From the sequence record OQ873415.1: DNA of 64,000 nucleotides. One strand, 5' to 3'. Under the pieces are notes generated by a model. It was not told the DNA's origin. It saw nothing but the letters and a program-made list of their open reading frames with translations, and ran no database searches. Source of the stretch: Escherichia phage PECP20. Shown here piece by piece: positions 15,853-20,609 of this stretch; the stretch's first letter is position 1; each line of letters begins with the position of its first letter. Both the position numbers and the translations under genes were made by a program.

Positions 15853-16632
15853 ATGGCAGTAGTAGGAATCCCTGGTTGGATTGGGACTTCAGCCGTTGCT
15901 GAAACGGGACAAAGATGGATGACGGCTGCTTCAAGGGAACTTCGTTTAGGAAACCCTTCATGGATGTCCCAATTCGCGGGCCGTTCAAGAGAAATAATTC
16001 ACACACTTGGAGCAGACCATAACTTCAACGGTCAATGGTTCCGAGATAGATGTTTTGAGGCAGGTAGTGCACCTATAGTGTTTAATATCACCGGAAATTT
16101 GGTATCATATAGTAAAGATGTTCCATTATTCTTTATGTATGGCGATACGCCAAATGAATATGTTACTTTGAATATTCATGGTGGAGTTCATATGTGGGGA
16201 CGAGGTGGTAACGGTACTGTAAACGGAAACCCAGGCACTAATGGTGGCGATGTAATCCAAAATGATATCGGCGGAAGACTTCGTATTTGGAACTATGGTG
16301 TTATTGCATCAGGCGGTGGCGGAGGTGGTGCAGTGTCATTACAGAATAGCTGGGCGCCAAATGCTACAGCAGGTGGCGGTGGTGGTAGACCATTTGGCAT
16401 CGGCGGAGGTGGAGTTAATTGGCCGGGTGGTAATGCTAGTTATGACGCCCCGGGCGGGGCCGGTTACACTTCCCAATTCGGCGGAGGCAATGGCGGTGAT
16501 GCTGGAGGTCGTGGCGGAGATGGATGGGGTAATCACTTATCTAGATCTGGCGGTGGTGCTCCTGGCAGAGCAGTATTCGGAAGTTCACCGTCATGGGGTG
16601 CTACAGGCACAATCTACGGCTCCTGGATTTAA
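15853..16632 (+). CDS. 38: Tail fibre adhesin gp38, T2-type with glycine-rich motifs
   Basis: 259 aa; conserved N-terminus [11 protein letters not shown]...[46 protein letters not shown] followed by poly-Gly motifs and C-terminal GSWI, as recalled for T2/T6 gp38. Confidence 0.85.
16192..16560 (+). repeat. Glycine-rich motif region of gp38 adhesin (poly-GGN/GGT codon runs)
   Basis: Protein segments [36 protein letters not shown] separated by short variable segments. Confidence 0.8.
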
Positions 16633-16677: not shown

Positions 16678-17337
16678 ATGGCAGCACCAAAAGTATCATT
16701 TTCGCCTAGTGATATTTTATTTGGGTTGCTAGACCGCATTTTCAAAGATAACGCCTCTGGAAATATTCTTATTTCAAGAGTTGCTGTTGTAGTTCTTTTG
16801 TTCCTAATGGCACTAATATGGTACAAAGGGAATATTTTTATGGATTATTACGTGAGGTCGAAATATGATACTTACACAGAAGTAATTCAAAAAGAAAGAA
16901 ATACACGATTTGAATCTGCGGCTTTAGAACAACTACAAATAGTCCACGTCACATCAAGGGCGGATTTTAGTTCGGTGTATTCTTTCAGACCTAAAAATCT
17001 AAATTATTTCGTCGACCTTATTGCGTATGAAGGTAAGTTACCTAGCACAGTAACTGAAAAATCTATGGGAGGATTTCCTGTTGATAAAACGACAGCAGAA
17101 TATTCGGTCCATTTAAGTGGACTTCACTTTACTTCTAAAACAGATTTTGCTTTCTTACCTACCAAATCAAAAACTCCGGAACTGGCGTATATGTATAGTT
17201 GTCCTTACTTCAATTTGGATAACATATATGCGGGAACTGTTTCTATGTATTGGTATAAGGGATCGGATGTGCTAAATGAAGAACGCTTGGCTGCAATATG
17301 CAACCAAGCAGCAAGGATATTAGGGCGGGCTAAATAA
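16678..17337 (+). CDS. t: Holin T
   Basis: ATG at 16678 gives 219 codons beginning MAAPKVSFSPSDILFGLLDRIFKDN, near-identical to T4 holin N-terminus as recalled; single TMD; late promoter at 16651-16658. Confidence 0.9.
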   Translation: MAAPKVSFSPSDILFGLLDRIFKDNASGNILISRVAVVVLLFLMALIWYKGNIFMDYYVRSKYDTYTEVIQKERNTRFESAALEQLQIVHVTSRADFSSVYSFRPKNLNYFVDLIAYEGKLPSTVTEKSMGGFPVDKTTAEYSVHLSGLHFTSKTDFAFLPTKSKTPELAYMYSCPYFNLDNIYAGTVSMYWYKGSDVLNEERLAAICNQAARILGRAK

Positions 17338-17610
17338 TTAGTTGTTAGAATACATCGTCAAATGGCGATAAATATTTTCAAAACCTTCATTGAATTCACT
17401 AATCAGTGTTTTCTTTTCTTCGGCAGTTAAATTTGTAATTAGTTTTCTGAACGAATTCTGATTTAGCTGCCGACCATCTTTTTTAATTCCAATCTCATTC
17501 AAGAATCCGATGAAATTTGCTCGGTCTTCAACAATATCTTCCCTAGAGAATTTAATCAAAATAGAAGCAATAGTAATAATTTCACGTACGATTTCAATGT
17601 CTTTATTCAT
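17338..17610 (-). CDS. asiA: Anti-sigma70 factor AsiA
   Basis: 90 aa; MNKDIEIVREIITIASILIKFSREDIVEDRANFIGFLNEIG matches T4 AsiA closely. Confidence 0.9.
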   Translation of the reverse strand: MNKDIEIVREIITIASILIKFSREDIVEDRANFIGFLNEIGIKKDGRQLNQNSFRKLITNLTAEEKKTLISEFNEGFENIYRHLTMYSNN

Positions 17611-17656
17611 AACGTTTTATTCATTCCACTTAATTGTTAGGAGTATAGTACCATTA

Positions 17657-17818
17657 TCAGTGTTGATTGTAAACGGCTTTTTCTACACTTTTAACGTAAT
17701 CAGTGTAGTCTTCCTGTTCGTACGAGTGTAAGGCCAAGAACGTGGCTAATAGTTCATTATAGACTAAAGCCTCACGCTCACGTTCTGCCTCTACTACGTT
17801 CTGAAGATTATGGCTCAT
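17657..17818 (-). CDS. hypothetical small acidic protein
   Basis: ORF track 17657..17872 trimmed to internal ATG abutting upstream stop; overlaps asiA early promoter region. Confidence 0.3.
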   Translation of the reverse strand: MSHNLQNVVEAEREREALVYNELLATFLALHSYEQEDYTDYVKSVEKAVYNQH

Positions 17819-17819
17819 A

Positions 17820-18107
17820 TCATTCCTTATAACTATCAATGTAGTCCTGTATGTCAAAGAACGACATTTCATATTCTAGGACATTAAGAGCCCGTTCTTC
17901 AGTATAGTCAGAACCAAAGACGATAGTGATTTCACCAGGCTTCATATGATTGAAATCAACGCTAAAAGGAATACGAGAACATACTTCGTCTGCCATATCT
18001 ACGATAACACTACGACACACTTCTCGGTTAACCTGATAAAGCTCTGCAAGTTCTTCACAACGAATAACAAGTTCAGTGGCAGGATTTTCTTTGATTTTAG
18101 TAAACAT
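17820..18107 (-). CDS. arn: putative anti-restriction protein Arn-like (acidic small protein)
   Basis: ATG at 18107 gives 95 aa (T4 Arn 92 aa); highly acidic C-terminal half; position between asiA and motA as in T4. Confidence 0.4.
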   Translation of the reverse strand: MFTKIKENPATELVIRCEELAELYQVNREVCRSVIVDMADEVCSRIPFSVDFNHMKPGEITIVFGSDYTEERALNVLEYEMSFFDIQDYIDSYKE

Positions 18108-18190
18108 AGTCTTTACCCTTATGTTTTTGTTTACGCTTAGATTGAAGTTCTGATTTCTTCTTGTCCTTATGGACAGAAGCCTTATTGAAA

Positions 18191-18409
18191 TCATGTTTTG
18201 CTACAAGATTGTTCATAATGATTTATAACCTCGTTTAAACATTTGTCTGTGAAAGAAAACTTTTTAGCCACAGAACATTCGATAATGTGCTCTTTCAAAT
18301 CTTTAGAGTCAGTATAACCCATCTCAGTAATAAAGTGGCGAATTAAAGCTTTATTCTTATCATTAACAGAATTAAAATAATCTGCTTTAGAATCAATTAT
18401 TCTCATCAT
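18191..18409 (-). CDS. hypothetical protein (arn.x position)
   Basis: 72-aa ORF in tight overlapping array. Confidence 0.4.
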   Translation of the reverse strand: MMRIIDSKADYFNSVNDKNKALIRHFITEMGYTDSKDLKEHIIECSVAKKFSFTDKCLNEVINHYEQSCSKT

Positions 18410-18674
18410 CTAATTTCCTTAATTGATATTGCAACGAGCTAATAATTTCTTCGTTCATTTTAATATACATGTCACGCAAGAAAGGTTTTAACCCATCACG
18501 AATAATTGCTAACGTATCACCTTTACATAAATTAACCAAATAAGGATGATCTAAAGCGTCCCAACCAGGCTGATTAGCATACATACCATAGTTTTCTTCC
18601 ATCATATGATTAAGACGTTTGATATCTTGGATACGTGATTCAATAGCATCTTTCTGGAGTTGTTTAATATTCAT
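18393..18674 (-). CDS. hypothetical protein (arn.x position)
   Basis: 93-aa ORF; 1-nt overlap with next ORF. Confidence 0.4.
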   Translation of the reverse strand: MNIKQLQKDAIESRIQDIKRLNHMMEENYGMYANQPGWDALDHPYLVNLCKGDTLAIIRDGLKPFLRDMYIKMNEEIISSLQYQLRKLDDENN

Positions 18675-19135
18675 TAATAAAGGTCCTCTGAATAAAGTTC
18701 TTTCTCACTTCCGCCACGTTCAATACGTACCTGTCCAGCATACGTTGCAATAATCATTGCTTCTTCACGTGTCCAGTAATTAGAGTATTGGTCAATAAAG
18801 CCTTGGTCGTCACCACAAACTTGTTGCGAGACTAATTGAGGACCGACTATGTCAAGTACTTCAGCCATATCTTTAGAGTAATGACGAACTCCAGGAATAA
18901 CCAGAGTTCCACCACTCTTCAATTTAAACCTATTAGCTGCACATACTATAACACGTTGAACTTTTTGGTCATTGTTCCAATAGCACGTTTGCCAACAGAT
19001 TTCAGGAACTTCATTCATTATATCATCAGCAGAATAATTATAACCGTAGGACTGGAATTTTTCTGCTAGACTTTCAGGAGTCTCACGAGACAAGGCTAAA
19101 TCTAATAGCTCTAAACGTTCTTTAAATGATTTCAT
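18674..19135 (-). CDS. hypothetical protein (arn.x position)
   Basis: 153-aa ORF; ATGA overlap with upstream ORF. Confidence 0.45.
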
Positions 19136-19461
19136 TTAAACCATTCCTTAATACGTTGCCAAATAGATTTTTGTGCTTGTTTATTTACACCAATCGAACG
19201 AATAACCGGTTGTGACTGCTGATATTCTTTATAATCTTCTTTATAGATTTCGTAAGCTGCATCAACAAATGAACTGATCGCTGCCATGTAGTTTTTACGA
19301 AGGCCAAATGGCGCGTCATTATTTTCACGAATAACCGTATATTGGCCTGCTTTAATCTTTACAATTGTCCCTAAATAAGCCCCGTGGTACCAAATATCCC
19401 ATCCTTCCTGAGTAGGTTCTGCACATTTACGAAGTTCGTTAATAATATTCAGCTTATTCAT
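19132..19461 (-). CDS. hypothetical protein
   Basis: 109-aa ORF immediately downstream of motA. Confidence 0.45.
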
Positions 19462-19471
19462 TATGTATTCC

Positions 19472-20104
19472 TCACAGTACGTTAGTTACAAGGGTAATGA
19501 TTTCTTTGGACACATTAGGGAAGTCAATGTAAGTATATTTACCACCGATTTTAATCTTAACATCATTTTCAAGAGAAGTAAACAGCTTTGATTCAGTTTC
19601 TGACATGTTGTATGCAAAGATTCTAAGAGCGCCATCTCGTCGAATTTCAATTTGGCGAATGCCTAGAACTCGTTTAGCGAATCGAACTTCTAAGTTACTA
19701 CGGTTTTCACCAATTTCTTTAACTTCAACTTTATCTTTAATATTTTCAAAAACAAAGTTCGCTAGTTCATGCATTTCAGGAGTAACTCCACGTGCTTTTC
19801 TGGTGTTACGTTTCTGGAGAAGTTCTGGAGCATTTTCTTGAGCAAATAGGTCTGCAGCTTTTTGGATAATATCCATTGCTTCGCCGGTTGCCACAAGTCC
19901 ATCACCGGATTTTTCGACTAAACCTTTTTTAATCAATACACCAATGTTAGAGTTAACAACCGATGCATTGTATTCCGCTTTCAGAGCTTCACGGACATTG
20001 GCAGCAGTGGTGAAGTTGTTCTTAATGATATAAACCATTATTGCAGCAGTTTTTTCATTCAGAGCGTTTTCAGAAGCTTTGATGATGTAAGTAACTTTAG
20101 ACAT
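19472..20104 (-). CDS. motA: Middle-transcription activator MotA
   Basis: 210 aa (T4 MotA 211 aa); N-terminus MSKVTYIIKAS...; early promoter at 20141-20169. Confidence 0.85.
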   Translation of the reverse strand: MSKVTYIIKASENALNEKTAAIMVYIIKNNFTTAANVREALKAEYNASVVNSNIGVLIKKGLVEKSGDGLVATGEAMDIIQKAADLFAQENAPELLQKRNTRKARGVTPEMHELANFVFENIKDKVEVKEIGENRSNLEVRFAKRVLGIRQIEIRRDGALRIFAYNMSETESKLFTSLENDVKIKIGGKYTYIDFPNVSKEIITLVTNVL

Positions 20105-20140
20105 TTTATTTCTCCAAATTAGTATTTGTTTGATAGGTCT

Positions 20141-20169
20141 ATAATATCATGTTTGAAGCAAAAGTAAAC
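20141..20169 (-). promoter_or_regulatory. Early promoter upstream of motA: -35 GTTTAC, 17-nt spacer, -10 TATTAT
   Basis: Near-duplicate of the 20462-20490 promoter including flanking ttgataggtctataatatcatgtttgaagca. Confidence 0.55.
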
Positions 20170-20206
20170 TTTATTTTGGGCTCTTTTTCAAAAGCCCTGG
20201 TAAAAT

Positions 20207-20422
20207 TTACAAACTCATTTCTTTAATAAGGCTAATAAGTTTTGCCTTTTTAGAACGAAGCTTTTCTAAATGATGTCCATTTGAACCGCGAACCACTAAA
20301 GAATTGATTTCAACTTCTAAGAAATTTAATTCTTCAACAAGTGCTTTACGGAGAGCATTCATACCAGGTTTAACTTTACCGAAACGAGTAGTTGTGTTTT
20401 GGGTTAATTTCATTTTAGACAT
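20207..20422 (-). CDS. hypothetical small basic protein (motA.1 position)
   Basis: 71 aa, Lys/Arg-rich; own early promoter at 20462-20490. Confidence 0.45.
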   Translation of the reverse strand: MSKMKLTQNTTTRFGKVKPGMNALRKALVEELNFLEVEINSLVVRGSNGHHLEKLRSKKAKLISLIKEMSL

Positions 20423-20461
20423 TTTATTTCTCCAATTTGGTTGTTTTGTTTTGATAGGTCT

Positions 20462-20490
20462 ATAATATCATGTTTGAAGCACATGTAAAC
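20462..20490 (-). promoter_or_regulatory. Early (sigma70-type) promoter: -35 GTTTAC, 17-nt spacer, -10 TATTAT
   Basis: Minus strand GTTTACatgtgcttcaaacatgaTATTAT; upstream of ORF 20207-20422. Confidence 0.55.
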
Positions 20491-20517
20491 TGTTTTGTGA
20501 GAAAAAAATGCACAAAA

Positions 20518-20533
20518 GGGAGCTTCGGCTCCC
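20518..20533 (-). terminator. Rho-independent terminator after gene 52
   Basis: Minus strand GGGAGC-CGAA-GCUCCC followed by UUUUGUG. Confidence 0.6.
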
Positions 20534-20609
20534 TAATCATGTTTGTCCAACCAATACAGCCAAATCACTAGTGCAGCTATTGCACCGAGAAATCCTAAGG
20601 CTAGGGCAC

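Follow-up and report, generated by a model that had tools for sequence, protein, structure and literature searches.

We analyzed a 64,000-nucleotide (nt) window of Escherichia phage PECP20 (sequence record OQ873415.1), in which an earlier note, made from the letters alone, had pointed to a run of small early open reading frames (ORFs) between asiA and motA and to an Arn-like acidic protein among their products. Judged by its sequence, the run at 17657–19461 is the known T-even 'arn cluster' of a phage of the RB69 lineage (Mosigvirus), and the 95-amino-acid (aa) protein encoded in it is very probably the Mosigvirus orthologue of arn. For the locus as a whole, the best and reasonably likely explanation is a conserved arn cluster of co-transcribed and coupled genes, in which the arn orthologue would act as an acidic DNA mimic. 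The arn cluster itself was already known; what appears to be new is the assignment to Arn of the RB69-type protein, which is highly divergent.

Over 2.9 kb, the cluster and its flanks share 99.7% identity with Escherichia phages CCU7 and LF82-4 and 97.8% with RB69. All three phages belong to the genus Mosigvirus, and 727 phage records have some match to this 2.9-kb region. On the matching strand, the RB69 record reads asiA, RB69ORF258c, RB69ORF259c, arn.1, arn.2, arn.3, arn.4 and motA. RB69ORF258c and RB69ORF259c, the latter being the counterpart of the 95-aa protein, are labelled hypothetical, and arn.1 to arn.4 are named, but not arn. The T4 reference has the same order: asiA, asiA.1, arn, arn.1 to arn.4, motA.

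The link to T4 Arn runs through an intermediate. With the 95-aa protein as query, HMMER was run exhaustively over 1.8 billion representatives and yielded two true relatives only, namely P0127 (62% identity) and P0130, a 91-aa metagenomic protein with 29% identity and a library-wide E of 8.6e-5. The alignment of P0130 with T4 Arn runs from end to end (90 aa, 33% identity, E = 7e-11), and P0130 also matched the 95-aa protein (E = 5e-15). When P0130 was compared by tblastn with all phage records, both RB69-type genes (E = 1e-7) and T4-type genes annotated as arn (E = 3e-4 to 8e-4) were recovered. Profile searches agreed in both directions: T4 Arn matched phrog_8202, the PHROG of the 95-aa protein, over its full length (E = 5e-3), and phrog_3151, the 'inhibitor of McrBC restriction' PHROG of T4 Arn, was matched by P0127 (4.6e-6), by the homologue in phage JS10 (2.6e-3) and by P0130 (1.8e-7). 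With P0130 left out, hhalign placed the RB69/JS10-type family and T4-type Arn in 79 colinear columns (P = 8.9e-4, probability 23%). A hidden Markov model (HMM) of the family gave T4 Arn 16.3 bits, or 27.9 bits when P0130 was included; the highest score among 3000 shuffled Arn sequences was 12.4 bits. A word-indexed homologue search found six clusters only, all at 80% identity or above. Other candidates were discarded: the scores of the giant repetitive proteins P0128 and P0129 arose from summed repeats and were artefacts, and a match to the PP7 coat protein (E = 4e-4) came from a tandem-dimer chain only, a single copy giving E = 0.76, as by chance.

Fold and gene order agreed with this link. 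The AlphaFold model of the 95-aa protein (predicted local distance difference test score, pLDDT, 75.6; predicted template modelling score, pTM, 0.60) has the order beta-alpha-alpha-beta-beta-alpha-alpha, and its top PDB match by Foldseek was T4 Arn, 3WX4 (probability 0.99, template modelling score, TM, 0.57, 94 columns), the next match standing at 0.35; the protein is thereby predicted to share the 3WX4 fold. P0130 lies in the equivalent slot of its contig, in the series DUF7230 fragment, P0130, an AsiA.1-like ORF beginning MSHNL, AsiA and holin. The order DUF7230, Arn-like, AsiA.1-like, AsiA, holin recurs in the window, T4, Shigella phage 113, JS10 and this metagenome contig (L004). Taken together, the matches through P0130, the profile comparisons, the predicted fold and the gene order lead us to regard remote homology to Arn as established, and the earlier suggestion of an Arn-like product is borne out. 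The placement of RB69ORF259c/phrog_8202 in the Arn family appears to have gone unrecorded: in RB69 and almost all related genomes the protein goes by 'hypothetical', PHROGs lists 'unknown function', and one record of the BASEL collection labels an 81%-identical homologue 'anti-restriction nuclease'.

Next, we considered what such a protein might do. It resembles T4 Arn in length (95 versus 92 aa), in acidity, and in its slot between the DUF7230 gene and asiA.1/asiA. The first helices of both proteins carry L-x-x-LY ... S-[IV]-[IV] ... [DE]-E-[VL], and both C-termini carry [FY]-[DE]-I-[QE]-DY; they differ in being 14% identical and in falling into separate PHROGs (8202 versus 3151). With 20 Asp/Glu against 9 Lys/Arg, the 95-aa protein has a net charge of –11 and an isoelectric point (pI) of 4.37, compared with –9 and 4.55 for T4 Arn; these figures describe overall composition, not the spatial pattern of charge. 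The C-terminal half, described earlier as acidic, is indeed the more acidic one (net –8). By analogy with T4 Arn, the protein would be an acidic mimic of DNA, taking up the surface through which a DNA-targeting defence protein of the host binds DNA. By default, the candidate target would be the type IV enzyme McrBC, which would cut hydroxymethyl-C DNA before the phage finishes its decoration. Other phage DNA mimics, namely T7 Ocr, ArdA, lambda Gam and Ugi, appear early in infection and inhibit DNA-binding proteins of host defence. Like them, the 95-aa protein is small and highly acidic, but it is unrelated to them in sequence and fold, and none rose above generic background in the fold searches. 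Inhibition of McrBC by T4 Arn is given in the annotation of the T4 record and in a preprint on T2 (bioRxiv 10.64898/2026.06.19.733364).

Several points weigh against an Arn orthologue that mimics DNA in front of McrBC. BLASTP of the 95-aa protein against T4 Arn gave no match, and phmmer of the same protein against all PDB sequences did not return 3WX4; on BLAST alone the result would have been 'no similarity to Arn', the outcome that the earlier note had named as refuting its assignment. The alignment with T4 Arn that the note had proposed as a check failed as a direct comparison and succeeded through P0130 and profiles. The AlphaFold model was built from a single sequence. Furthermore, the residue aligned with N70 of T4 Arn is a Thr, and at 14% identity the target may well be other than McrBC.

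An Arn descendant that was retargeted, so that it is an acidic decoy against another host DNA-binding protein and does not inhibit McrBC, is the alternative that fares best, though we think it rather unlikely. The protein retains 14% identity to T4 Arn while its neighbors keep 72–79%. Specificity seems to shift easily, since T4 and T2 Arn differ at three positions only, among which N70S decides the inhibition of PUA-Cal-HAD: T4 Arn inhibits this system, N70 is needed, and the single N70S change abolishes activity (PMC12871103). Moreover, the DNA decoration of RB69-type phages is arabinosyl-hydroxymethylcytosine, not glucosyl-hydroxymethylcytosine (PMC6024577), and the relevant host nucleases may therefore differ. 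Possible new targets would include H-NS, a PUA-Cal-HAD-like system, another type IV enzyme (GmrSD/BrxU) and RNA polymerase. Going by the title of a 2014 report by Ho et al. (J Biol Chem 289:27046, cited in PMC12871103), T4 Arn reportedly inhibits DNA binding by H-NS. Nevertheless, all four lineages examined keep the slot, the length, the charge and the coupling to the DUF7230 gene, which suggests that the role is conserved, and no data favor any one of the alternative targets.

Judged from the identities to T4-type proteins (last column of the table below), Arn is by far the fastest-evolving gene of an otherwise conserved block. Divergence this extreme is as expected for direct conflict with host factors, and it fits either an arms race or a shift of target. 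At least four deeply divergent Arn lineages could be told apart: T4-type, RB69-type (178 phage records), JS10-type (32% identity to the 95-aa protein) and P0130-type. The AsiA.1-like protein shows a weak N-terminal similarity to T4 AsiA.1 (BLASTP, E = 1e-4), and its slot is also filled in T4, JS10 and the metagenome contig. We also noted that in JS10, a Dhakavirus (L005, 1295–1645 and 2392–2511), an additional gene of 116 aa (phrog_14178) separates arn.4 from arn.3 and arn.1 is absent, differences which imply that the cluster gains and loses cassettes between genera.

The gene immediately upstream of the arn orthologue, which encodes a basic protein of 39 aa, had been missed in the earlier note: its coordinates and minus strand for the array were right, but its count of six ORFs was not, as there are seven genes. 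The DUF7230 match of the product lies above the Pfam gathering threshold (49.3 bits versus a cut-off of 27, E = 5.2e-13, residues 2–37). The gene is unannotated in the T4 reference, RB69 and LF82-4, and is named RB32ORF249c in some records, such as that of Shigella phage 113. Orthologues are present in T4 (L003, 2081–2200, minus strand), JS10 and Shigella phage 113, and a partial one lies on the metagenome contig; in all four the gene overlaps the arn-like gene by the same 11 nt. Between T4 and JS10, its non-overlapping center differs by 1, 2 and 13 changes at codon positions 1, 2 and 3, of which 11 are synonymous and 3 non-synonymous, and in the other two frames nearly all changes are non-synonymous. 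This codon-position pattern argues that the ORF is a real protein-coding gene under purifying selection. Being basic and coupled to the acidic Arn, the 39-aa protein could be a partner of Arn. A literature search for DUF7230, for RB69ORF259c and for PF26092, a Pfam family met below in Arn.3, returned no papers.

The earlier note had also listed the remaining ORFs as candidate anti-defence factors, giving no evidence for such roles. A concrete lead emerged for Arn.3 only, in its N-terminus. Arn.3 has 130 homologues, which carry precomputed matches to Pfam PF26092, and its conserved core spans approximately residues 44–153 with the signature QRxIVxAANR ... RH ... QGFIDQ ... R..EA ... GQ ... L[YF]SE[DN]LY. 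The AlphaFold model has a pLDDT of 88 (~97 in the core) and places helices at residues 4–16 and 20–29. No structural neighbor of the core was found in the PDB, and a search of PDB sequences gave nothing meaningful.

In front of this core, residues 1–30 of Arn.3 (19046–19135, minus strand) match the PADLOC profile PD-T4-9_B (E = 1.9e-7, profile positions 1–30 of 77), as do the N-terminal modules of six out of seven Arn.3 homologues (best E = 4.1e-10). PD-T4-9 is CmdTAC, a toxin-antitoxin-chaperone defence system that is carried on P2-like prophages and restricts T-even phages (PMC9519451; PMC11618068). Using primer sequences from the supplement of PMC11618068, we traced the system to a locus of E. 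coli N2250 (L007), where PADLOC models A, B and C (E = 4e-97, 3e-38 and 7e-61) confirmed it within a P2-like prophage; a genome scan with CmdT found a single near-identical locus. The antitoxin CmdA of N2250 (L007, 2531–2764) has 77 aa, starts MLSFEQRMALLNKALQQYNPESLYEKLSSY... and ends ...DLAA. Over the first 30 residues it is identical to Arn.3 at 16 positions (53%; BLASTP, E = 1e-7) and it shares 18 of 32 residues with Arn.3 of JS10 (E = 1e-8), alignment scores that none of 5000 shuffles reached. According to PMC11618068, CmdA consists of a pair of helices at the N-terminus and, after them, a disordered tail for chaperone addiction that ends in LAA. The predicted N-terminal two-helix module of Arn.3 resembles this description. 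By contrast, Arn.3 has neither the addiction tail nor the LAA degron, and continues instead into a globular core of 110 residues that ends ...YSEDLY. The module is separable, being missing in many Arn.3 homologues and duplicated in P0010. In the window, tblastn of CmdT and CmdC gave nothing below E = 0.8, and the neighbors of arn.3 are arn.4 and arn.2. Since tail, degron and CmdT/CmdC neighbors are all lacking, Arn.3 is not a member of the CmdA family but shares a module with it. Searches with the N-terminal module gave no match by blastn in E. coli genomes or by tblastn in plasmids, and two trivial matches in the protein database.

We weighed the proposal that counter-defence in the array rests mainly on Arn.3, whose N-terminal helical pair would mimic the toxin-binding end of CmdA. 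Lacking tail and degron, Arn.3 could then keep a CmdT-type mRNA ADP-ribosyltransferase neutralized after the antitoxin has been degraded; otherwise, it might interfere with the assembly of TAC-type defence complexes. The PADLOC matches, the identity to CmdA and the shuffling result all speak for this, as do the agreement of the predicted helices with the published two-helix description of CmdA (PMC11618068), the separability of the module, and the fact that CmdTAC restricts T-even phages specifically. However, T4 has Arn.3 and is nonetheless strongly restricted by the CmdTAC of ECOR22, and selections for escape gave alt.-3 mutants, not arn.3 mutants (PMC11618068). The similarity is limited to 30 residues, and the Arn.3 family did not come up in the reverse scan, in which CmdA was compared with PHROGs. 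That CmdA contacts CmdT through its N-terminal helices is itself an inference from the published model, not a statement of the paper (PMC11618068), whose immunoprecipitation-mass spectrometry tables contain no arn product. On balance, we find it quite unlikely that Arn.3 leads the counter-defence. Equally doubtful is the fuller version, in which Arn.3 would be a phage-encoded, protease-resistant antitoxin decoy, with the CmdA helical pair fused to an apparently new fold, and the arn cluster a multi-target anti-defence island.

Lastly, it is very unlikely that the likeness to Arn is a coincidence and that an unrelated small acidic alpha/beta protein with a function other than DNA mimicry fills a variable slot: the direct pairwise comparison with T4 Arn was negative and the hhalign probability was 23%, but P0130 matches both proteins over their full length (E = 5e-15 and 7e-11), the profile matches are reciprocal, none of the 3000 shuffles came up to the real HMM score, and the synteny is identical, down to the 11 nt shared with the 39-aa gene upstream.

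The ORF listing and the sequence show an unbroken run of minus-strand genes from 19461 down to 17657. The ORFs other than the 95-aa frame, described in the earlier note as arn.x-type genes without assigned function, proved by BLASTP and by their order to be orthologues of T4 AsiA.1 and Arn.1–Arn.4; the functions of the arn.x genes are still unknown according to the T2 preprint (bioRxiv 10.64898/2026.06.19.733364). Upstream neighbors are gp38 and the holin gene t, and downstream lie a small ORF and the topoisomerase gene 52. The gp38 homologue (15853–16632, plus strand) is glycine-rich, with runs of the GGGGG type. We also noted that the motA.1 slot (20207–20422, minus strand) encodes a basic protein of 71 aa (phrog_6200) unrelated to T4 MotA.1 (49 aa, hydrophobic); here, too, a conserved position has been taken over by a non-homologous gene.

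Features of the arn cluster and its flanks, by descending position; positions refer to the window
Feature	Position	Strand	Evidence	Identity to T4-type
T4-early-type promoter-like site before motA	20141..20168	-	GTTTACT, 16 nt, TG-n-TATTAT	
motA (middle-transcription activator), upstream flank	19472..20104	-	Pfam MotA_activ E 2e-39, MotCF E 2e-8	50%
Arn.4, intact, 109 aa	19132..19461	-	75% identity to T4 Arn.4 over 67 aa, E 3e-37 (BLASTP); phrog_1594	73%
Arn.3, 153 aa	18674..19135	-	BLASTP vs T4 Arn.3 E 9e-88	76%
Arn.2, 93 aa	18393..18674	-	41% identity to T4 Arn.2, E 1e-20 (BLASTP); phrog_1844	39%
Arn.1, full-length, 72 aa	18191..18409	-	74% identity to T4 Arn.1 over 42 aa, E 4e-22 (BLASTP); phrog_4452	72%
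Basic protein, 39 aa, pI 10.1	18097..18216	-	Pfam DUF7230 (PF23876) / phrog_1359	79%
Divergent Arn homologue, 95 aa (RB69ORF259c)	17820..18107	-	phrog_8202; net charge -11, pI 4.37	14%
AsiA.1-like protein, 53 aa, acidic, pI 4.7 (RB69ORF258c)	17657..17818	-	phrog_5245 E 5e-31; AAGGA Shine-Dalgarno 5 nt upstream	25%
asiA (anti-sigma-70), downstream flank	17338..17610	-	Pfam AsiA E 7e-33	73%
Terminator-like hairpin, 28 nt past asiA	17284..17310	-	12-bp stem, 6 GC pairs, T-rich tail	

Every proposed start, in seven of seven genes, is preceded at 5–11 nt by a Shine-Dalgarno sequence (AAGGA, AAGGG, GAGG or GAGGA). The AsiA.1-like gene starts at MSHNL with AAGGA, and the 95-aa frame has AAGGG; the longer ORFs at these two places, a maximal ORF of 71 aa and an extension to 124 aa, have no Shine-Dalgarno sequence, hence the real products are taken to be 53 and 95 aa. 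Neighboring genes overlap by 4 nt (arn.4/arn.3), 1 nt (arn.3/arn.2), 17 nt (arn.2/arn.1), 26 nt (arn.1/39-aa gene) and 11 nt (39-aa gene/arn-like gene), and a 1-nt gap separates the arn-like and AsiA.1-like genes. Junctions this tight are the usual arrangement for translational coupling.

The promoter-like site at 20168–20141 is probably the start of a motA-arn transcript, and we infer that the cluster is co-transcribed from there. A second T4-early-type site lies before asiA (17673–17645, minus strand). Overall, such promoter-like sites were no commoner than chance, with 12 found and 12.2 expected. No MotA-box middle promoter was detected before any gene of the array, the sole relaxed match being inside motA, at 20048. 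The hairpin past asiA is the only terminator-like site on the minus strand within 17200–20600, and an Rfam search gave no real match. In T2, the arn cluster reportedly forms a single transcript and is described as a middle gene cluster (bioRxiv 10.64898/2026.06.19.733364).

The cluster resembles the T4/T2 arn operon in gene order, orientation and tight packing, with Arn.3 and Arn.4 73–76% identical to the T4-type proteins. Unlike in T4, arn.1 (72 aa, starting at ATG) and arn.4 (109 aa) are both complete; the T4 annotations give 43 and 68 aa. For T4 arn.1 (L003, 2175–2393, minus strand), the annotated product corresponds to the C-terminal 43 aa, and the frame stays open up to a TTG with a Shine-Dalgarno sequence, 87 nt before the annotated ATG, giving 72 colinear residues. 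Substitutions in this extension are 7 synonymous and 5 non-synonymous, compared with 4:10 and 0:13 in the other frames. The T2 preprint reports a '70-nt intergenic region' between arn.2 and arn.1 that contains an RNase E site (bioRxiv 10.64898/2026.06.19.733364); in view of the open frame and the synonymous bias in T4, this region is probably coding. There is no such gap in the window, where the two genes overlap, and the 39-aa gene is not mentioned in the description of the T2 operon (bioRxiv 10.64898/2026.06.19.733364). T4 arn.4 is a 68-aa remnant, upstream of which L003 3335–3467 (minus strand) holds frameshifted fragments of the N-terminal 40 residues; the window, JS10 and Shigella phage 113 have these residues as part of an unbroken protein (109–114 aa).

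The 3' end of T2 arn.2 also carries a 10-nt pairing site for ArcZ, CCAGGGAAAT, complementary to AUUUCCCUGG of ArcZ (bioRxiv 10.64898/2026.06.19.733364). The site is present in T4 and absent from the whole arn cluster of the window, where the homologous position (arn.2/arn.1 junction, 18393–18420, minus strand) reads TTAAGGAAAT. Its absence suggests that ArcZ-dependent stabilization may not apply to RB69-type phages.

Arn.1, Arn.2 and Arn.4 had no informative family or PDB sequence match, and NCBIfam returned nothing for any gene of the cluster. The label 'anti-restriction nuclease' that homologues of Arn.1 and Arn.3 bear in PHROGs, UniRef and GenBank seems to have been passed on with the gene name and not to rest on evidence. 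Arn.2 had a PADLOC match to 'Hp1' (E = 2e-3), which we rejected after it failed to recur in three orthologues. We also observed a weak PADLOC match of Arn.4 residues 5–36 (19354–19449, minus strand) to a type II restriction enzyme, at E = 0.002–0.02 in three orthologues and at profile positions 62–93. As the orthologues are closely related, these matches are not independent and may be due to chance.

RB69-type phages had been taken to lack Arn; with the assignment made here, the family comprises at least four very divergent lineages. These natural Arn variants are material for studying how the specificity of a DNA mimic evolves, which is timely given that a single residue decides specificity toward PUA-Cal-HAD. 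The gene models of a much-used region are corrected as well, with a conserved 39-aa gene coupled to arn and with full-length arn.1 and arn.4. Finally, the resemblance to the CmdTAC antitoxin provides the first concrete hypothesis for Arn.3, one that would be notable if true: should the decoy be real, Arn would be only one member of an anti-defence island.

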